DNA from: an uncultured Flavobacteriales bacterium
GTDB taxonomy: Bacteria > Bacteroidota > Bacteroidia > Flavobacteriales > BACL11
Length of the DNA: 64,000 bases
Direction of reading: 5' to 3'
Assembly (NCBI GenBank): GCA_943788405.1
Contig: CALSQD010000002.1
Location: 1,325,701 to 1,389,700, forward strand
This document shows positions 52,630-61,921 of the stretch, one piece after another (within the stretch, counting starts at the first letter, position 1; each line of letters opens with the position of its first letter). A program made the position numbers and the translations under genes. The notes under the pieces are model-generated. The model was not told the DNA's origin and ran no database searches. It was given only the letters and a program-made list of their open reading frames with translations.

Positions 52630-54471
52630 ATGGATAAAACTACTCAGGTTGTTGATTTAGAAAAAGTTGTCATCAAATTTGCTGGTGACTCAGGAGATGG
52701 AATGCAATTAACTGGGACTCAGTTTACGGATACTTCAGCTCTGCTAGGAAATGATTTAGCTACTTTCCCTGATTATCCTGCTGAAATTAGAGCACCTCAA
52801 GGAACAGTTGCTGGAGTTTCAGGATTCCAAATTCATATTGGGCGTATTGATATTAATACTCCAGGGGATATTGCTGATGTATTAGTTGCCATGAATCCTG
52901 CTGCCCTAAAAGCCAATAAAAATTGGATTAAAAAGGGAGGAACAATTATTGTAAATATTGACACTTTTACAAAACGAGATTTAGAAAAAGCAGGCTATGA
53001 AACTTCTCCTTTGGAAGATAATTCCTTTGAAGGATATAATATTATTCAGGCGCCAATTACCAAATTAACTAGAGAAGCTTTAAAAGATTCAGGCTTAGAC
53101 GGAAAAAGTATTGGAAGGTCAAAAAACATGTTTGCTTTAGGAATTGTGTATTGGATGTTTAACCGACCAATGAAGCAAACAGAAAAATTCTTAGAAAAGA
53201 AATTTGCCAAAAAACCTGAAGTTGTTGCAGCTAACATTAAAGTGATGCATGCAGGTTATAATTTTGCTGATACTATTGAAGCATTACCATCCTCCTACAC
53301 TGTACTTTCTGCAAATTTAGCACCAGGAACCTATAGGAATGTAATGGGAAATCAAGCCATTGCATGGGGGTTTTTAGCTGCAGCTGAACGATCAAACAAA
53401 GAATTATTTTTAGGATCATATCCTATTACACCAGCTTCAGATATTTTACACGAACTGGCAAAACATAAAAATTTAGGGGTTAAAACTTTTCAGGCAGAAG
53501 ATGAAATTGCAGGGATTTGTTCAGCAATTGGAGCAAGTTTTACGGGAAGTTTAGCCATCACTACAACATCAGGTCCTGGACTAGCACTAAAAGGGGAAGG
53601 CTTAGGTTTAGCCATTATGGCTGAATTGCCTTTGGTTGTTGTAAATGTACAAAGAGGAGGGCCTTCAACAGGATTGCCAACTAAAACGGAACAATCGGAT
53701 TTAATGCAAGCGCTTTACGGAAGAAATGGTGAAAGCCCTTCAGTAGTTTTAGCAAGTTCAACTCCTGGAAATTGCTTTGATTGGGCATATATGGCATCAA
53801 AAATAACATTGGAACATAATACCCCTGTCGTTTTACTTTCTGATGGATATTTAGGAAATGGAGCAGAACCTTGGAAGATAAAATCAACTAAGGATATGCC
53901 TGAAATTAACCCAAGTATTGCTGTTGAGGGAGAGGAATATCAACCTTATGCAAGAGATGAAAAAACATTGGCTAGGAAAATAGCATTACCTGGAACAAAA
54001 GGATTAGAACATAGGCTTGGCGGATTAGAAAAAGAAGATGTTACTGGAAATGTTTCTTATGACCCAGACAATCATGAAAAGATGGTGGGCATAAGAGCAG
54101 AAAAAATAAAAAGAATAGCAGATGTAATTCCTGATCAGCAAGTATTTGGGAAAGAAGAAGGAGATTTATTAGTAATTGGTTGGGGAGGAACACATGGTTC
54201 GCTTTATAGTGCAGTTGATAATTTATTGGCTGATGGAGAGGAAATTGCTTTATGCCAGTTTAACTACATAAACCCACTGCCTAACAATATTGAAACGCTA
54301 TTAAGTAAGTACAAAAAAATTGTGGTGTGCGAATTGAACTCAGGGCAGTTTGCTAATTACCTAAGAATGAATTTCCAAGGTACTATTTTTAATCAATACA
54401 ACAAAATACAAGGATTCCCATTTACATCTAGCGAACTAGAATCTCATTTTAAAACTTTATTAGCAAAATAA
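52630..54471 (+). CDS. korA: 2-oxoglutarate:ferredoxin oxidoreductase subunit alpha
   Basis: 613 aa with fused gamma and alpha domains. It has the motifs FAGDSGDGMQLTG and GSYPITPASDILHELA. It is followed by the TPP-binding beta subunit. Confidence 0.9.
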   Translation: MDKTTQVVDLEKVVIKFAGDSGDGMQLTGTQFTDTSALLGNDLATFPDYPAEIRAPQGTVAGVSGFQIHIGRIDINTPGDIADVLVAMNPAALKANKNWIKKGGTIIVNIDTFTKRDLEKAGYETSPLEDNSFEGYNIIQAPITKLTREALKDSGLDGKSIGRSKNMFALGIVYWMFNRPMKQTEKFLEKKFAKKPEVVAANIKVMHAGYNFADTIEALPSSYTVLSANLAPGTYRNVMGNQAIAWGFLAAAERSNKELFLGSYPITPASDILHELAKHKNLGVKTFQAEDEIAGICSAIGASFTGSLAITTTSGPGLALKGEGLGLAIMAELPLVVVNVQRGGPSTGLPTKTEQSDLMQALYGRNGESPSVVLASSTPGNCFDWAYMASKITLEHNTPVVLLSDGYLGNGAEPWKIKSTKDMPEINPSIAVEGEEYQPYARDEKTLARKIALPGTKGLEHRLGGLEKEDVTGNVSYDPDNHEKMVGIRAEKIKRIADVIPDQQVFGKEEGDLLVIGWGGTHGSLYSAVDNLLADGEEIALCQFNYINPLPNNIETLLSKYKKIVVCELNSGQFANYLRMNFQGTIFNQYNKIQGFPFTSSELESHFKTLLAK

Positions 54472-54472
54472 T

Positions 54473-55477
54473 ATGGAACATTTAACAAATAAAGATTTTA
54501 CGAGTGACCAAGAGGTAAAATGGTGTCCGGGCTGTGGGGATTATGCAATTTTAAGAGCCATGCAAAAGGCATTGCCAAATCTTGAAAGAAAGAAAGAAGA
54601 TTTTGTATTTATATCTGGTATTGGTTGTTCTTCTCGTTTTCCGTATTACATGAATACCTATGGATTTCATACGATACACGGTAGAGCCCCTGCTTTTGCT
54701 ACAGGAGTAAAATTGGCTAATCCAAACCTTAGTGTTTGGCAAATTACTGGTGATGGAGATGCACTTGCAATTGGTGGAAACCATTTTATACATGCCTTAA
54801 GAAGAAATATTGATATTAATATTTTACTTTTTAATAATGAGATTTACGGATTAACAAAAGGGCAGTTTTCGCCTACTTCTAAAAAAGGAATAAAAACAAA
54901 ATCAAACCCTCACGGAACTACTGACGAGCCGTTTTCTCCTTCTGATTTAGCAATTGGAGCACAAGGATCATTCTTTGCAAGGGTGGTGGATACCAACCCA
55001 AAATTAATGCAACAAATTTTTGTAGAAGCAGAAAGTCATAGAGGAACTTCTTTAATTGAAATTTTGCAAAACTGTGTTATTTTTAACGATAAAACCTTTG
55101 CTCCTATTACTGCAAAAGAGGTGAAAAAAGATGCTCAGATTGTACTAGAACAGGGTAAGCCTATGTTATTTGGTGCTGAAATGAATAAAGGAATTGTACT
55201 GAACGGATTTAAGCTAGAAGTGGTTACTGTTGGAGAAAATGGTATTACTGAAAAAGATATTTTGGTGCATGATGCGAAAGAACAAGACCCTACTTTACAT
55301 GCTATGTTGGCGCGTATGCGACCACCTGAATTTCCTGCAGCACTAGGAATTATCCGTGCAGTAGATCGTCCAACTTTTGATGAAGGATTATTGGCGCAAC
55401 TAGAGTACGAAAAAGAAAATGCCAAATTCAATACAGTAGATGAATTGCTACAAAGTGGCGATACTTGGGAGATATAG
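54473..55477 (+). CDS. korB: 2-oxoglutarate:ferredoxin oxidoreductase subunit beta
   Basis: 334 aa. It has the motifs WCPGCGDYAIL and GIGCSSRFPYY and the TPP motif GDGDALAIGGNHFIH...NNEIYGLTKGQ. Confidence 0.9.
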   Translation: MEHLTNKDFTSDQEVKWCPGCGDYAILRAMQKALPNLERKKEDFVFISGIGCSSRFPYYMNTYGFHTIHGRAPAFATGVKLANPNLSVWQITGDGDALAIGGNHFIHALRRNIDINILLFNNEIYGLTKGQFSPTSKKGIKTKSNPHGTTDEPFSPSDLAIGAQGSFFARVVDTNPKLMQQIFVEAESHRGTSLIEILQNCVIFNDKTFAPITAKEVKKDAQIVLEQGKPMLFGAEMNKGIVLNGFKLEVVTVGENGITEKDILVHDAKEQDPTLHAMLARMRPPEFPAALGIIRAVDRPTFDEGLLAQLEYEKENAKFNTVDELLQSGDTWEI

Positions 55478-56654: not shown

Positions 56655-59060
56655 TTAAAACTCAATTAACAACCCAATGCTAGGAAGGACTGTGCCAGAG
56701 TTATTAATGATCTCATATAGGGGGTAGCTTTCTGAATTTTCTCCCGTACCCTCAACTAAAGGCCCTAAATTTGGATCTATTCCATATTCAGATGGTAATT
56801 GTCTTTTTGCATTTAAAATATTTTCAATATCGATATAAGCATTTAAACTCCAAGATTTAAAGAACCATTTCTTATCAATTCTAATATCAAGTCCATGCTG
56901 GCCTTTCAGGCGTTGGGTGTTTAATAAATTATAATCTAGTACACCTCTTTGATTAATATCCCAAATACTTTTATTACTTGAATTAATTAAATCAGTAGGT
57001 GTGTAGGGTGATCCACCAGAATAACGATACTTAATCCCTAGCTCAATGTTATTCTTAAACTTTTTACCAGCTGTCATATTTAGTATAAATCTATTATCCC
57101 ATTTAGATGAAATCAATTTTCCTTCATTATCTTCAAATCTACTGTAATAATATGTTGCTGATAGTATTCCGTAAATACTTGAACTCATTTTTTGTTGTGC
57201 TAAAAGTTCTATTCCGTAACTATTACCTTTTGATATAGATGATACGTCCTCATTACCAACTACACCAAAATCATCTCCTAAATTTGCCAATGATATAGAA
57301 TCAAGTATTGAGAAGGGGTAATTACTATACCTCTTATAAAATGACTCTAATGAGATTTTGCTATAGCTAGAAGGATTATATTCAATTCCTATCACTGCAT
57401 GGTCACAAGTAATATATGCAACATCTTTGTTAAGGTATTTGCCATTATTCTCAAATCCTAATATAGTATAGGATGGTAATTGATGAAACCTACCAATATT
57501 ACTATTAATACTTGTTTTACTATTAAGGTTGTAAGCTAATGATAGTCTTGGAGAAAAATTATTTGAATTTGCATTGTCAGTAAATGAATTTCCGTCTATT
57601 CGTAAGCCAAATGAAGAAGTTAGTTTATTTTCAATGTATGTTTTGCTTATTTGTGTAAAAGCTCCATATTTTATAAAATGTAAATTAACATTATTAATTC
57701 CCGTAATAATACTATCTCCAATAGTAAATATCTGATTCGTATTGTTTGTATATGTTGCATCTTCTAAATTAGATCCAATTATAATTGAATAACCATTTCT
57801 TTTAAAATTATACTCTAAGCGTGTTTTATTCTCGATCTCTTCTGATTTGTAATCTAGAATTTTTTGTGAATTTTCATCTGCATAATCTAAATACTTTAAA
57901 GCAGTATTATCAAGATGGTTTCTACTCATTACAAAAAAGAGGTTTGAGTTATCAAAAAAATGTCTCCAAGTACCTCCAATTGTGTAATTCCATTGCTTAT
58001 TTATAACTAAATTATTTAGATTATAATTATTTAATGCAATTTGCATCGTATCTTCTTCATCATTGTTAATATCTTTATTAAGAGTGAAATCATCAATTGT
58101 AGCTATTCCAAGAAAGTTAAATTGATTCTTTCTATCTGGTTTAAAAGTATATTTAAACTGCATATCGTTATAGGTTGGTAAAAAAGGTAATTTTAATGCT
58201 TTGAATAAAAATTGTAAGTATGATCTTCTTACCGATAACAATAGAGTAGACTTTTTAGATAGCGGTGTGTTTAGCGTTAGTCCAGCATCGCTAGATCCTA
58301 GAGCAAACGAACCACTTATTTTTTCTTCATTTCCTTCAATCAGCTTTAATTCCATTACAGAGCTAAGTGCATTTCCTCGGTTTGCAGGAAAAGCTCCAGT
58401 GTAAAAATCAACTTCTCTAATAAAATTAACATTTAAAATACCTACTGGACCTCCGGATGACCCTTGAGTAGTAAAATGATTGATAGTTGGTATTTCAACC
58501 CCATCTAAGAAAAATTTATTTTCAGATGGCGAGCCTCCCCTAACAATAATATCGTTTCTAAAACCTGATGATGTAGCCACTCCAGGCAAATTTGCTACTA
58601 CTCTAGAGATATCTCTATTTCCACCAGCACTTTTAGAAATTTCTGAAGCATTAATCGTTCGCAAACTTACAGGGCTAGCTTGTGTTTTATTAAAAGTATT
58701 TCCCCTAACTTTTACTTCCCCCAAAAGCTCTGAATTTTCACTTAGAAAAAAATCAAGTCTGAGACTTTTGTTAGAGCTTACCTTTATTTCTGATTGAATA
58801 TCTGTATTAAATCCAATATAACTACATTTAAAGTTATAAGCACCAGCATTTAAACTCAAAATCTCATAGTTTCCATTAATATCAGATGTAGCGCCAATTG
58901 TTGTCCCTTCAATAATAATGTTTGCAAAAGGTATCGGCTCGTTATTTAAGGTATTACTAATTGAACCGTATACTTTTACACTTTGAGAAGATACAACATT
59001 TGAAAATGCGATAAAGCTAATAAATAGAATCGTATTTTTTATAGAAACTTTTTTATTCAT
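56655..59060 (-). CDS. TonB-dependent outer-membrane receptor with an N-terminal carboxypeptidase-regulatory-like domain
   Basis: 801 aa with a signal peptide. It has a CarboxypepD_reg-like segment (VYGSISN...PIPFANIIIEGTTIGATSDINGNYEI) and a plug region (…DISRVVANLPGVA...IIVRGGSPSENKFFLDGVEI). A long barrel ends ...SIGLLIEF. Confidence 0.85.
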   Translation of the reverse strand: MNKKVSIKNTILFISFIAFSNVVSSQSVKVYGSISNTLNNEPIPFANIIIEGTTIGATSDINGNYEILSLNAGAYNFKCSYIGFNTDIQSEIKVSSNKSLRLDFFLSENSELLGEVKVRGNTFNKTQASPVSLRTINASEISKSAGGNRDISRVVANLPGVATSSGFRNDIIVRGGSPSENKFFLDGVEIPTINHFTTQGSSGGPVGILNVNFIREVDFYTGAFPANRGNALSSVMELKLIEGNEEKISGSFALGSSDAGLTLNTPLSKKSTLLLSVRRSYLQFLFKALKLPFLPTYNDMQFKYTFKPDRKNQFNFLGIATIDDFTLNKDINNDEEDTMQIALNNYNLNNLVINKQWNYTIGGTWRHFFDNSNLFFVMSRNHLDNTALKYLDYADENSQKILDYKSEEIENKTRLEYNFKRNGYSIIIGSNLEDATYTNNTNQIFTIGDSIITGINNVNLHFIKYGAFTQISKTYIENKLTSSFGLRIDGNSFTDNANSNNFSPRLSLAYNLNSKTSINSNIGRFHQLPSYTILGFENNGKYLNKDVAYITCDHAVIGIEYNPSSYSKISLESFYKRYSNYPFSILDSISLANLGDDFGVVGNEDVSSISKGNSYGIELLAQQKMSSSIYGILSATYYYSRFEDNEGKLISSKWDNRFILNMTAGKKFKNNIELGIKYRYSGGSPYTPTDLINSSNKSIWDINQRGVLDYNLLNTQRLKGQHGLDIRIDKKWFFKSWSLNAYIDIENILNAKRQLPSEYGIDPNLGPLVEGTGENSESYPLYEIINNSGTVLPSIGLLIEF

Positions 59061-59069
59061 TCTGTAATT

Positions 59070-60089
59070 TTATGATGTGTGAATTAAGCTTGACCAAAAT
59101 TCGTGAGGTACATGATTACTAAATTTACTGTTAGGAGCAAGAATTACTGATACAGCATCATGTGAATGTAAAGATTCTTGGTGAGAGCAAATTACTCGAA
59201 AATCTTTGACACGTGTATCATTTACTAACTGTTCATATAATAATCTAGCAGCATCTTCAACAAACTTGAGATAAGATCCGTTGAGTTCAGCAAACGCCAT
59301 CTCATCTTCTCTTTTTACTATTACTTGAGTTTCAGTTTTTAAGGCATTTATACACATTTCTTGTAAATCTTCAATCCATACTGTATTTTCAAATTTAATA
59401 GATATTCTTGCTACTGAGCGCTGTGAGTGTGATACAGTTATTTTGTTTCTATATTTTTTAGCATGTTCTGCAAGTTCATAAGAACAAGGACAAGCTGAAG
59501 AGTAAACAAAATCAAAATGTAAAAACTTTATTATATCTCCTTTATTATCGATATTACTTTCTAAAGTGCAGTTATAATATTGATATCCTGAGTTCTTAGA
59601 TCTTAAGGATGATTGTAATATAGGGTAAGAAAAGTGTAATCCAATTCTTGCATCAAACGTCTCTAGATCATCTTTATAGTTAAGTAATATTTTATCTAAC
59701 TTATTATAAACTTTTTCATCTTTATATTTGTAGAAAGATCTCATAATACGAGACATATTAATACCTTTCTTATGAGCAGCTAAAGATACAGTGCCTGTTA
59801 CTTGAGTTTCAAGTTCTATATCCCCTCCTTCTCGTTTATCATACTTAAGAGGTAATCTGAAATTATGAATACCTACTTGTTGTATAGCTACAGGAGCCCC
59901 TTGTATTAAAGAAGAAGGACCATTCTGTAAGTCTGGAAAAGTCTTAATATCATCTTTAGTGGGTTTATAATCAGTATCATAATCTCTATTAGGCTCATAG
60001 TACCTTTCGGAATGTTTGTTGTTAGGAGCTTCTATTGTAGACTCAGCATCTCCAATCCATTCATATTTTTTGTCATTTTTTTTATTCAT
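59070..60089 (-). CDS. folE2: GTP cyclohydrolase I type 2 (FolE2/MptA family, GCYH-IB) with an N-terminal extension of about 50 aa
   Basis: 339 aa. Several blocks align by eye with the FolE2 sequences I know: IQQVGIHNFRLPL, KGINMSRI, SSACPCS...SHSQRS, VKREDEMAFAE...KFVEDAARL and ESLHSHDAV. Confidence 0.85.
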   Translation of the reverse strand: MNKKNDKKYEWIGDAESTIEAPNNKHSERYYEPNRDYDTDYKPTKDDIKTFPDLQNGPSSLIQGAPVAIQQVGIHNFRLPLKYDKREGGDIELETQVTGTVSLAAHKKGINMSRIMRSFYKYKDEKVYNKLDKILLNYKDDLETFDARIGLHFSYPILQSSLRSKNSGYQYYNCTLESNIDNKGDIIKFLHFDFVYSSACPCSYELAEHAKKYRNKITVSHSQRSVARISIKFENTVWIEDLQEMCINALKTETQVIVKREDEMAFAELNGSYLKFVEDAARLLYEQLVNDTRVKDFRVICSHQESLHSHDAVSVILAPNSKFSNHVPHEFWSSLIHTS

Positions 60090-60099
60090 ATTGATCCCA

Positions 60100-60555
60100 T
60101 TATTTTGTTAGAGGCTCATATATTGCTGAATTATTTGTACCGCCTTCATAACATTCAACATTTAAAACTTTAACTCTTCCTTTTGTCTCAATAAATATCA
60201 TTTTGTTTATGTAATTGTAAACATAAGTGGCAAATTTCTCACATCCAACTCCATTTAATACTCTTAGTTGTATTAAATTTTGTTCTGAAAGTTTTTTAAA
60301 TATTGATAATTGAGGATCATCTTCTGCAACTATTGTTGTATGGTCAAACATGTAGCTCATGTGTTCCTTTATTCCATTTCTTTTAAATGAGCCAAAATCA
60401 CAAACCCAGTTTAATTCGCTTAGGCTTCCTGTAAAGGTGACTTTAAACTTCATTGCGTATCCATGAATATATTGACAGTGAGAATGTTTAGCTTTCCATT
60501 GTCTAAATGCTGTGCTATATCCATCAAAAATTTTGGTACTGTTGAATTCGTTCAT
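60100..60555 (-). CDS. QueD/PTPS-fold (T-fold) protein with a non-canonical metal site
   Basis: 151 aa. The region ...YSTAFRQWKAKHSHCQYIHGYAMKF... aligns with the QueD block ...FEAAHRLP...CGRLHGHSF.... The Cys and the middle His are kept. The first His position is Phe, and HGH reads HGY. Confidence 0.7.
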   Translation of the reverse strand: MNEFNSTKIFDGYSTAFRQWKAKHSHCQYIHGYAMKFKVTFTGSLSELNWVCDFGSFKRNGIKEHMSYMFDHTTIVAEDDPQLSIFKKLSEQNLIQLRVLNGVGCEKFATYVYNYINKMIFIETKGRVKVLNVECYEGGTNNSAIYEPLTK

Positions 60556-60556
60556 T

Positions 60557-60652
60557 TTTTTTTTACAAAAATACTTTTTTTTTATTAATGTATAATTATT
60601 TTTATAAAAAGTTATACATATTTAAATTATATATGTATTTTTGTAAAAAAAA
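60557..60652. promoter_or_regulatory. Mirror-symmetric divergent promoter/operator region
   Basis: Perfect 18-bp inverted arms lie at 60557-60574 and 60635-60652, and each carries TATTTTTG. The concentric inner elements are the palindrome TTTTTATAAAAA (60599-60610) and ATGTATAA-N16-TTATACAT (60588-60619). Confidence 0.6.
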
Positions 60653-60825
60653 TGATGAATAAATTTCTAAGTACCTATTATCCAATATTACTTGCTTTTG
60701 CTTGTATGTTGTATTCTATTGGGTTACATATAATAGGAGACCCAGAAGGAGCGCAGTACACAGCACATTGGCCTGGTACAATTTTACTATTTGCTATAGC
60801 AATAAGACAAAGAAGAAAATCATGA
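60652..60825 (+). CDS. 57-aa two-TM membrane peptide (not in the ORF track)
   Basis: Hand translation gives MMNKFLSTYYPILLAFACMLYSIGLHIIGDPEGAQYTAHWPGTILLFAIAIRQRRKS. It has two hydrophobic helices and a basic tail. The TGA stop overlaps the next ATG (ATGA at 60822-60825). Confidence 0.5.
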   Translation: MMNKFLSTYYPILLAFACMLYSIGLHIIGDPEGAQYTAHWPGTILLFAIAIRQRRKS

Positions 60826-60977
60826 ATTTGAGTATGCTTATAGTAGGATTTGTAATTTTTTCTCTTTATATTATTGGACTTATATATATGATTAATGTAA
60901 GTCATAAAGAACAAGAGCAAGATTTATTAAATGATCCAGAGATTCCTAAAAATTTTAAAGACAAATTAACTAAATAG
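60822..60977 (+). CDS. 51-aa single-TM membrane peptide
   Basis: The sequence is MNLSMLIVGFVIFSLYIIGLIYMINVSHKEQEQDLLNDPEIPKNFKDKLTK. This is the hydrophobic, internally consistent part of the 91-aa ORF-track entry 60702-60977. It is translationally coupled to the preceding ORF. Confidence 0.5.
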   Translation: MNLSMLIVGFVIFSLYIIGLIYMINVSHKEQEQDLLNDPEIPKNFKDKLTK

Positions 60978-61027
60978 TTGTGTTTAATTTAAATGATATC
61001 TTATTATTTAAGATAAATAACTGAATT

Positions 61028-61921
61028 ATGAATTTAGGTTACGCTTGCATTAATATGACTTTGGGAGAACATAAACCCAAAATTACTACTAATCGTAGTA
61101 TGATTAAAAAAACTTTTAAAGAAAAAGGTATTACATACGCATCTGAATTGGCTATTCAAAACTGCAGAGATCTAGTTGAGATAATTAAATGGAATAATAA
61201 GAATGGAATTAACTTCTTTAGGTTAACCTCTGATTTGTTTCCTTGGGCATCTGAGTATAATCTCACAGAGTTACCAAATTACAATCTCATTGAAAATATA
61301 TTAGGTCTTGCCGGAGCACTTTCGAATAAGTGTGGGCAACGTATCACAGCACATCCTGGTCCGTTTAACGTGTTAGTATCTCCTAAGGAACACGTAGTAG
61401 AAAATACTATTGCTGATTTAACTTTACATGGTGAAGTCTTTGATATTTTAGGATTGAGTAGAACTCCTTATAACAAAATCAATATACATTGTAATGGTGT
61501 TTATGGTGATAAGATAGCTGCAATGGATAGGTTCTGTAAGAACTTTGAGAGGCTGCCTGAATCAGTTCAAACTCGTTTAACTGTAGAGAATGATGATAAA
61601 GCAAGTATGTACTCTGTAAAAGATTTAATGTACATTCATGAACGTATTGGTATTCCTATTGTATTTGATTACCACCACCATAAATTTTGTACAGGAGATT
61701 TATCAGAAGAAGAAGCGCTAAAACTTGCAGTGTCTACTTGGGGTGATATAAAGCCTGTAGTTCATTATTCAGAATCTAAAGCATTGCATGAGCGGAATGA
61801 TAAGTTAAAACCTCAGGCTCATTCAGATTATATTAAAGAGATTCCTAATACTTATGCATTAGACTTAGATGTTATGGTAGAGGCAAAAGCTAAAGAACTG
61901 TCTATCATTCCATTTTTATAA
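61028..61921 (+). CDS. uvdE: UV damage endonuclease UvdE
   Basis: 297 aa. All the UvdE TIM-barrel blocks I know are present: LGYACIN, FRLTSDLFPW, AHPGPFNVL, INIHCNG, LTVENDD, IVFDYHHH, VVHYSES, AHSDYI and DVMVEAKAKE. Confidence 0.9.
   Translation: MNLGYACINMTLGEHKPKITTNRSMIKKTFKEKGITYASELAIQNCRDLVEIIKWNNKNGINFFRLTSDLFPWASEYNLTELPNYNLIENILGLAGALSNKCGQRITAHPGPFNVLVSPKEHVVENTIADLTLHGEVFDILGLSRTPYNKINIHCNGVYGDKIAAMDRFCKNFERLPESVQTRLTVENDDKASMYSVKDLMYIHERIGIPIVFDYHHHKFCTGDLSEEEALKLAVSTWGDIKPVVHYSESKALHERNDKLKPQAHSDYIKEIPNTYALDLDVMVEAKAKELSIIPFL

Follow-up and report, generated by a model that had tools for sequence, protein, structure and literature searches.

The chemistry of QueD and PTPS enzymes has been described as zinc-dependent, with the metal holding the side-chain oxygens of the substrate. 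The locus studied here raises the question of what becomes of this chemistry when two of the three zinc ligands are gone. It lies in a 64-kb stretch of DNA from an uncultured Flavobacteriales bacterium (contig CALSQD010000002.1; the whole stretch of 64,000 nucleotides is referred to as the window) and centres on the gene at 60100-60555 (minus strand), which encodes a T-fold protein and is followed by a gene for a GTP cyclohydrolase. An earlier note on this DNA, relying on an alignment made by eye, had reported that two of the three metal-ligand histidines of this protein are replaced by Phe and Tyr, with the Cys and the middle His kept. Our analysis bears this out and argues, with a probability of about one half, for a QueD-type T-fold enzyme without the canonical zinc triad, which would act in a FolE2-coupled module for 6-carboxytetrahydropterin (CPH4) encoded by an operon switched by light through a CarH/LitR-type regulator.

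Fold and family of the protein

The open reading frame at 60100-60555 was confirmed. Its translation, 151 amino acids in length, reads MNEFNSTKIFDGYSTAFRQWKAKHSHCQYIHGY... and includes YSTAFRQWKAKHSHCQYIHGY. The protein matches the Pfam family PF01242 (PTPS) with 55 bits (E 1e-14, cut-off 22.4) and its AlphaFold model (pLDDT 88.4, pTM 0.86) has the T-fold, which together place it in the PF01242/COG0720 superfamily. On the basis of the Pfam match, a profile alignment and the model, we assign it to a subfamily of PTPS/QueD T-folds with the signature 'FRQW...[ST]HC-x3-HGY', called the HGY subfamily below. Structural comparison with Foldseek returned, at probability 1.0, PTPS/QueD T-folds alone, namely the Wolinella succinogenes protein WS1659 (3jyg, TM 0.80), QueD (4ntk/4ntm), QueD2 (7v0f) and the rat, human and Plasmodium PTPS; FolB-type aldolases were matched with an E-value of 0.02 and a TM of 0.29 at best. 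A sequence search of the PDB with the single T-fold sequence gave nothing useful. WS1659, the best structural match and itself uncharacterised, shares with our protein the longer architecture and a DH...DDP segment. However, WS1659 has kept HGH (CRHLHGH) and is only 18% identical.

The protein is found in identical form on contigs of up to 1.95 Mb. The nearest genomic relatives of the window (G+C 32.5%) are metagenome-assembled genomes (MAGs) of uncultured marine Flavobacteriales, with 96% and 92% identity.

Family-wide replacement of the zinc ligands

HMMER alignment of E. coli QueD (PDB 4ntm) with a profile built from 19 homologues places F17 at His16, C27 at Cys27, H31 at His31 and Y33 at His33. 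Taken alone the match of the profile to 4ntm is weak (E 0.14), and family membership rests on the Pfam match. In the AlphaFold model residue 17 is the end of strand beta1 and residue 31 the start of beta2, with a short helix at residues 25-28 between them; the layout is the same as in the QueD structure. Because the profile alignment and the secondary structure of the model agree, the ligand histidines are replaced and not shifted; the alignment made by eye was right, and the shifted-histidine alternative that could have overturned it is rejected. Two of the three canonical zinc-ligand His are therefore missing, with F17 and Y33 in their place, and only H31 remains.

Conservation was counted over the best 150 family representatives, 142 of which span the ligand sites. 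The ligand triplet is F/H/Y in 132 of these 142, H/H/Y in three, F/H/H in one and H/H/H in none, so the replacement can be neither chance nor sequencing error. It is a signature of the whole family rather than a one-off, and the earlier observation is thus correct and more general than first stated. The residues C27, H31, D71-H72, E106 and E137 are retained in our protein and nearly invariant in the representatives (C27 in 141/142, H31 in 143/144, D71 in 148/149, H72 in 147/149, E106 in 143/145 and E137 in 123/126), as is D80 (149/149). Counted back by eye from the shared C-terminal strand (NSAxY/AGCIY), E137 takes the place of Glu110, the pterin anchor of E. coli QueD, and E106 that of Glu86. 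The predicted pterin pocket and acid/base apparatus are thus conserved across the family, whereas the zinc triad is not.

An extra histidine, H26, stands directly before Cys27 and is kept in 132 of the 142 representatives. Since H26 and the triad His72 are both conserved, a remodelled metal site may be present. Altered use of metal appears likely: the enzyme may be metal-free, may use another metal or may have a site rebuilt from H26, H31, H72 and Y33.

Three loci, from an unclassified MAG (L080; L numbers denote related loci retained in our genome scan, described below) and from Bacteriovoracaceae/Halobacteriovoraceae MAGs (L083 and L090), encode proteins of the form PCTHRQW...C-x3-HGY, in which the first His is kept and the last is Tyr. 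This sub-branch may represent an intermediate state of the metal site. Among the representatives P0126, P0123, P0136, P0213 and P0245 some are fused to other N-terminal regions. The N-terminus of P0126 is GIY-YIG-like by eye; P0213 and P0245 have long, low-complexity N-termini of eukaryote-like appearance, that of P0213 being SAM-domain-like (by eye), and P0213 retains His at the first ligand position.

Relation to QueD and to the phage homologues

The subfamily is large. A word-indexed search yielded 1199 family clusters at 90% identity, and an exhaustive profile search yielded 1468 clusters at 50% identity (E<=1e-3), 131 of them at E<=1e-30. A scan of one genome per GTDB species confirmed 193 relatives, and 80 loci were retained from these; neighbouring QueE, QueC, QueF, DpdA and FolE genes were called by phmmer with phage query proteins.

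The most informative relatives are found in phages. The T-fold protein matches phrog_2389, 'QueD-like 6-pyruvoyl-tetrahydropterin synthase', over 145 of 158 profile positions (E 1.5e-35, 123 bits), and tblastn found homologues with 42-51% identity in 108 phage genomes, including phages of Pseudomonas, Rhizobium and Xanthomonas. The annotated 'QueD' proteins of the Cellulophaga phages phiST (CGPG_00071) and phiSM (CEPG_00050) and of the Flavobacterium phage immuto (gp216) are members of the family, 46-51% identical to ours, and carry the same Phe and Tyr replacements: FSTTFRQWKAEGTHCKFLHGY in phiST, YSTVFRQWRAEGTHCSFLHGY in immuto and FRQFRAESHCRLLHGY in phiSM. Their genes adjoin those of QueE, FolE, QueC, DpdA and QueF. 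Mass spectrometry of phiST DNA has revealed 302,000 dDG per 10^6 nt, and of immuto DNA 345,000 fdPreQ1 per 10^6 nt, the dG peak being gone in both, and phiSM DNA carries dPreQ1 (PMC10516641). The same study credits both phiST and phiSM with a QueD gene.

Bacterial members of the family are also found beside QueE-like and QueC-like genes, in Cysteiniphilum (L085, L088 and L091), in Caedibacter (L081) and in L082 and L072. Further members lie in DpdA clusters (L048, L064 and L065), and others adjoin FolE. The QueE-linked members and the clade of the window show no difference at catalytic or pterin-binding positions. The residues that set the window clade apart from them are A16, K36, C52, F57, N60, I62, I116, L131 and G138, together with a one-residue insertion (T140).

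The family includes phage 'QueD' genes that stand in FolE-QueD-QueE clusters, and a QueD-like activity is therefore the simplest reading. The enzyme would most likely convert dihydroneopterin triphosphate (H2NTP) to CPH4, and one activity across the family would be the most economical assumption. The earlier note had offered an aldolase-like chemistry as another possibility; this suggestion is not supported, the QueD-like reading being the simpler one in view of the same phage clusters.

Comparison with described classes

The likeness to E. coli QueD (4ntk/4ntm) comprises the T-fold, a Cys placed four residues before the His, the Cys/Asp/His set, the anchoring Glu and an Arg after the first ligand position, and other members of the HGY subfamily adjoin QueE, QueC and FolE. 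However, our protein is only about 16% identical to E. coli QueD, is about 30 residues longer, has Phe for His16 and Tyr for His33, and possesses the extra conserved residues Q19, W20, H26, W50, D53 and D80-P81. The canonical QueD/PTPS-I pattern of C-x3-H-G-H with a three-His zinc site (His16, His31 and His33) does not apply to a protein with C-x3-H-G-Y and an upstream Phe. The catalytic Cys, the Asp-His pair and the pterin-anchoring Glu of that class are all present (C27, D71-H72 and E137 with E106, the glutamates by eye). The protein probably works like QueD. An annotation as canonical QueD would not be appropriate.

The other classes fit less well. PTPS-II has the motif C-x5-H-G-H (PMC5041015), whereas our protein has x3 spacing and Tyr in place of the last His. 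PTPS-III, which bypasses FolB, has E-x2-H-G-H (PMC5041015), and in our protein Gln28 stands three residues before His31 and HGH is missing. PTPS-IV resembles it as a COG0720 member with FolE2 as a neighbour (the other being RibD_C) but forms a different sequence cluster, and its FGPAQ signature (PMC5445326) is absent from our protein. QueD2 of Acinetobacter baumannii (PDB 7v0f) is comparable as a low-zinc QueD variant with an altered metal site. Unlike our protein, which has x3 spacing, HGY and 151 residues, QueD2 keeps HGH, in a C-x4-H-G-H motif, and the upstream His. It has an invariant Cys18 or His, a C-terminal extension and a second zinc site that involves Cys18, and it is in many cases under the control of Zur. 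The HGY subfamily may correspond to PTPS-V, a class of 'still unclear' function (PMC5041015).

The phrog_2389 proteins share FRQW...HC-x3-HGY with our protein and have GTP cyclohydrolase I in their cluster. The phage genes belong to DNA-modification clusters of the form FolE-QueD-QueE(-QueC-DpdA), whereas that of the window is a chromosomal gene, is paired with FolE2 only and has an operator of the light type; in its product the loop ahead of the DH motif is shorter, and EGGT replaces EH past the strand.

Coupling to a GTP cyclohydrolase I

The partner gene at 59070-60089 (minus strand) starts 10 nt downstream of the T-fold gene and encodes 339 amino acids. As the earlier note had named it, it is FolE2, the GTP cyclohydrolase IB: it matches PF02649 with 230 bits and the FolE2/GCYH-IB equivalog NF010200 with 267.7 bits against a cut-off of 215. 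Residues 1-51 form an N-terminal extension of about 50 amino acids ahead of the Pfam/NCBIfam match, and the homologues in related loci are 339-362 amino acids long.

In the clade of the window a GTP cyclohydrolase I always follows the T-fold gene directly, and its type varies. FolE2 is the partner in L001-L009, L013, L014, L017-19, L021, L024 and L025, and FolE-IA in L015, L016, L020, L022, L023 and L026; one MAG, SI048_bin47, has both kinds of pair on different contigs. On a neighbour-joining tree the FolE2-paired and FolE-IA-paired T-fold proteins interleave. The FolE-IA partner keeps the zinc-ligand motifs CSHHH and CVSC and scores below the cut-offs of the housekeeping FolE equivalogs, which suggests a dedicated isozyme. 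Since it is 61% identical to the FolE of phage immuto, the two-gene module of T-fold protein and FolE looks to be one that phages and hosts share.

The alternation of FolE2 with a zinc-ligand-bearing FolE-IA in the same clade means that the coupling is of the T-fold protein with any GTP cyclohydrolase I and not of one zinc-free enzyme with another.

A palindrome midway in a divergent promoter region

The 96 nt between the T-fold gene and the divergent unit (60556-60651) form an imperfect palindrome with arms of 48-50 nt. At their exact centre, equidistant from the two divergent start codons, lies a perfect palindrome, TGTATA-N18-TATACA (60589-60618), a predicted operator of the CarH/LitR type. 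Identical TATTTTTG boxes are found in the two arms (60566-60573 on the minus strand and 60636-60643 on the plus strand), and they fit TAnnTTTG, which we take to be the Bacteroidetes -7 consensus. The central position of this palindrome in the divergent T-fold/UvdE promoter region is new here. The 64-kb window contains one such site against 0.48 expected from shuffled sequence. With one mismatch allowed per half-site 17 sites were found in the window and 24 in the shuffles, and since this relaxed search does not exceed the shuffles only the perfect site is counted. A scan for sigma-70 promoters and terminators was uninformative, the sites being fewer than in the shuffles, and an Rfam scan around the operon detected no preQ1, THF or other riboswitch.

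The upstream regions of the T-fold genes have a palindrome G[TC]ATAA-N16-TTAT[AG]C in common, and 15 related loci have the strict palindrome in the corresponding place, before FolE2-paired and FolE-paired operons alike.

The divergent unit (60652-61921, plus strand) consists of two small predicted membrane ORFs without a family match, at 60652-60825 (57 aa) and 60822-60977 (51 aa), followed by the UV damage endonuclease gene UvdE at 61028-61921 (TIGR00629, 219 bits). The small ORFs are called as genes in the four closest contigs, both of them in L001-L003 and the 57-aa one in L004. One direction of the promoter region would drive the T-fold gene and FolE2, perhaps with a receptor gene beyond them, and the other the membrane ORFs and UvdE.

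Light-related company and a candidate regulator

In related genomes the neighbours of the pair include proteorhodopsin with blh, genes of the photolyase/cryptochrome family, UvdE, a short-chain dehydrogenase/reductase (SDR), flavin reductase, DUF2805, CIA30 and, once, UmuCD. In the more distant Bacteroidota L059 and L061 the order is ORF, T-fold gene, GNAT and photolyase; in L060 and L063 a regulator gene stands divergent to an operon of ORF, T-fold gene, MsrA and Fpg, with SDR and photolyase genes upstream. L059 and L060 each have an ORF ahead of the T-fold gene; these two ORFs show no relationship, and neither matches a Pfam family. A genome holds about three genes of the photolyase family (PMC5932025). 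By a rough estimate a random gene would have a chance of a few per cent of lying within 10 kb of one, and four independent photolyase-linked arrangements are therefore unlikely to have arisen by chance. The photolyase-family proteins at 3176-4258 of L005, 2151-3215 of L006 and 4225-5301 of L008 are about 355 amino acids long and have FAD_binding_7 only, without the N-terminal antenna-binding domain.

The palindrome is also found before genes of this company: it precedes an SDR-flavin reductase-UvdE operon in L007/L008, a weak thioredoxin-like ORF (under the Pfam cut-off) followed by MsrB in L017, a cupredoxin gene in L020 and the T-fold/photolyase operon in L059/L061. In L005 (6854-6976), L018 (9910-10001), L019, L021 and L007/L008 it occupies the short intergenic stretch from which proteorhodopsin-blh and the T-fold-FolE2 pair diverge, and it may also be the light switch of proteorhodopsin in these Flavobacteriales.

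Carotenoid genes and autoregulation characterise the classic CarH/LitR regulon. In L059/L061 an array of TGTATA/TATACA sites lies between a divergent crtI-like gene and the gene of a 291-aa protein with MerR_1 and B12-binding (B12-binding_2) domains, and a homologue of this regulator is encoded directly upstream of the T-fold operon in L060/L063, where its CarH match is weak (31.6 bits against a cut-off of 400). The LitR sites footprinted in Pseudomonas read T(G/A)TACA-N12-TGTA(C/T)A, and among the members of that species' light regulon are phrB, an SDR and a folM-folE-folX operon induced by light (PMC9758184). The likeness of our locus to this class II regulon extends from a palindromic, promoter-overlapping operator with TGTA(C/T)A-type half-sites to the photolyase, SDR, GTP cyclohydrolase I and T-fold pterin enzyme. 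It differs in that the T-fold partner belongs to the PTPS family and is not FolX, and in that the regulators, seen in related genomes only, have a B12-binding domain and are class I-like. Because of the conservation of the operator, its company of light-related genes, its co-occurrence with the MerR/B12 regulator gene and its likeness to LitR half-sites, we predict that a CarH/LitR-type regulator probably keeps the operon off in darkness and that light induces it.

Proposed mechanism and competing explanations

In the mechanism that we propose, light would lift a B12-dependent repression of the CarH/LitR type at the central palindrome, and the module would be switched on together with UvdE. 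FolE2 would convert GTP to 7,8-dihydroneopterin triphosphate. A hexamer of the T-fold protein would then hold the pterin through E137 and E106, and Cys27 with Asp71-His72 of the neighbouring subunit would carry out the elimination of triphosphate and the cleavage of the side chain. The product would most likely be CPH4, from which the 7-deazaguanines (preQ0/queuosine) derive. The role of zinc could be taken in two ways: Tyr33, Arg18 and Gln19 might act as hydrogen-bond donors that polarise the side-chain oxygens of the substrate, or a rebuilt site (H26, H31, H72 of the other subunit and Y33) might bind a different metal. In QueD2, coordination of the metal by the triad His from the opposite subunit is reported to be possible, and so is the use of Fe(II) (PMC9894224).

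Several observations weigh against a light-switched CPH4 module. The protein scores 31.5 bits with the QueD equivalog TIGR03367, far under its cut-off of 89.25. Linkage to queE and queC, which the phage homologues and many other members show, was not seen in the window or its clade: in about 25 loci of the Flavobacteriales clade phmmer with phage query proteins detected no QueE, QueC, QueF or DpdA within 10 kb, and a panel search of the 64-kb window for homologues of QueE, QueC, QueF, DpdA, FolE and LitR found none. The QueC-like and QueE-like neighbours in Cysteiniphilum have QueC and QueE as their best match, score under the NCBIfam cut-offs and are phage-like; they may belong to islands and not to housekeeping operons. 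The phage data do not prove activity, as the hosts of the phages may provide their own QueD. COG0720 enzymes are promiscuous, and a single residue can alter the product (PMC5041015); the literature searched gives no assay of the HGY subfamily and just one passing mention of CxxxHGY. As to regulation, the window holds no CarH/LitR gene, and the half-sites are separated by N18 and not by the N12 of the characterised LitR sites.

The explanation next in weight to the CPH4 module is that of a light-induced pterin pathway apart from the deazaguanines. The GTP cyclohydrolase I, the T-fold protein and an SDR of the predicted regulon (with the flavin reductase) would produce a biopterin- or monapterin-like reduced pterin, for use as cofactor, antioxidant, UV screen or chromophore, in analogy to FolE-PTPS-sepiapterin reductase and to Pseudomonas folM-folE-folX. 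The light-induced, LitR-controlled folM-folE-folX operon is a precedent for such a combination (PMC9758184), and a network study labels CxxxHGY clusters 'PTPS-II-like', with FolE as neighbour (PMC5445326). The palindrome before the SDR-flavin reductase-UvdE operon, the SDR and photolyase genes near the T-fold gene in L060/L063, the failure to detect que genes within 10 kb in the clade and the window-clade substitutions adjoining the pterin-anchoring Glu (G138 and the T140 insertion) fit the same explanation. However, the light-linked proteins of L059-L063 have the QueE-linked residues at the discriminating positions, the x3 spacing after the Cys is QueD-like and not the x5 of PTPS-II, and the SDR matches are generic, with the SDR non-adjacent in most loci. 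We consider this pathway possible, though rather improbable.

The earlier note had proposed a metal-independent or alternative-metal route formed by FolE2 and the T-fold protein. The part of it that concerns the T-fold protein stands: with two ligands gone, the pterin and acid/base residues kept and a tight pairing with GTP cyclohydrolase I, a changed metal requirement is reasonable. A zinc-sparing pair selected by the scarcity of zinc in the surface ocean would go further. Besides the family-wide loss of two of the three ligands, FolE2 as the non-zinc isozyme (PMC5699537) and the low-zinc QueD2 and FolE2 paralogues of other bacteria (PMC9894224) favour it. But the 'zinc-free pair' is not general, for the zinc-ligand-bearing FolE-IA alternates as the partner in the same clade and in phages, which weakens the zinc-sparing logic; the conserved upstream element is CarH/LitR-like, with no zinc-related signal recognised in it, and the family is also found in many habitats where zinc is not scarce, as in the phages of Pseudomonas, Rhizobium and Xanthomonas. 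Selection for zinc sparing thus seems an unlikely origin of the pair.

Still harder to sustain is a place in the folate branch, where the protein, as a FolB bypass like PTPS-III/VI or as an aldolase-like T-fold, would yield 6-hydroxymethyl-dihydropterin, from which light-exposed cells would renew their folate, itself photolabile, and provide photolyase with its MTHF antenna. The nearby photolyase genes, the dedicated GTP cyclohydrolase I and the fact that FolB and FolX are metal-free T-folds speak for it, and a light-regulated folE is known (PMC9758184). On the other side, the ExxHGH of PTPS-III is absent, with Gln28 in that place and Cys27 kept, the Foldseek match to FolB is weak compared with the strong ones to QueD/PTPS, and neither folK nor folP was seen in the annotation of the neighbouring genes. 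A degenerate, non-catalytic pterin- or purine-binding protein, for which the loss of two metal ligands could speak, is barely credible, given that Cys27, Asp71, His72, Glu106 and Glu137 are near-invariant over hundreds of divergent clusters and that the gene is retained in phage biosynthetic clusters.

Other genes of the window

The gene at 56655-59060 (minus strand) starts 9 nt past the stop codon of FolE2 and encodes an outer-membrane receptor-like protein of 801 amino acids with CarboxypepD_reg and Plug domains. It is possibly co-transcribed with the T-fold gene and FolE2; it was seen only in the closest relatives. Unrelated to the T-fold gene is a two-subunit 2-oxoacid:ferredoxin oxidoreductase (POR/POR_N, TPP_enzyme_C) at 52630-55477 (plus strand), with a ferredoxin and a NifU-like gene nearby.

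Implications for the family and for marine Flavobacteriales

The analysis brings out a very widespread, uncharacterised QueD-like clade without the zinc triad. This one-ligand clade includes the 'QueD' of phages with 7-deazaguanine DNA, in two of which guanine is fully replaced. If its members are active, either a rebuilt metal site or a metal-free route is needed, and either outcome would extend what is known of the T-fold superfamily and correct annotation rules that are based on CxxxHGH.

For the bacteria of the window, the conserved operator places a module that leads from GTP to a pterin within a B12/light regulon predicted for abundant marine Flavobacteriales, and the palindrome is a candidate light switch for the photolyase, UvdE and proteorhodopsin genes of these uncultured organisms. 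More tentative, and on balance doubtful as a whole, is the wider proposal that the FRQW/HGY clade is a synthase of CPH4 (or a related pterin) without the canonical zinc site, being metal-free or using a His/Tyr site, and that in proteorhodopsin-bearing marine Flavobacteriales it forms an operon with a dedicated GTP cyclohydrolase I under a B12/light-sensing CarH/LitR repressor. If this were true, sunlight would control the entry to deazapurine/pterin synthesis in these bacteria, together with photolyase, UvdE and possibly proteorhodopsin.

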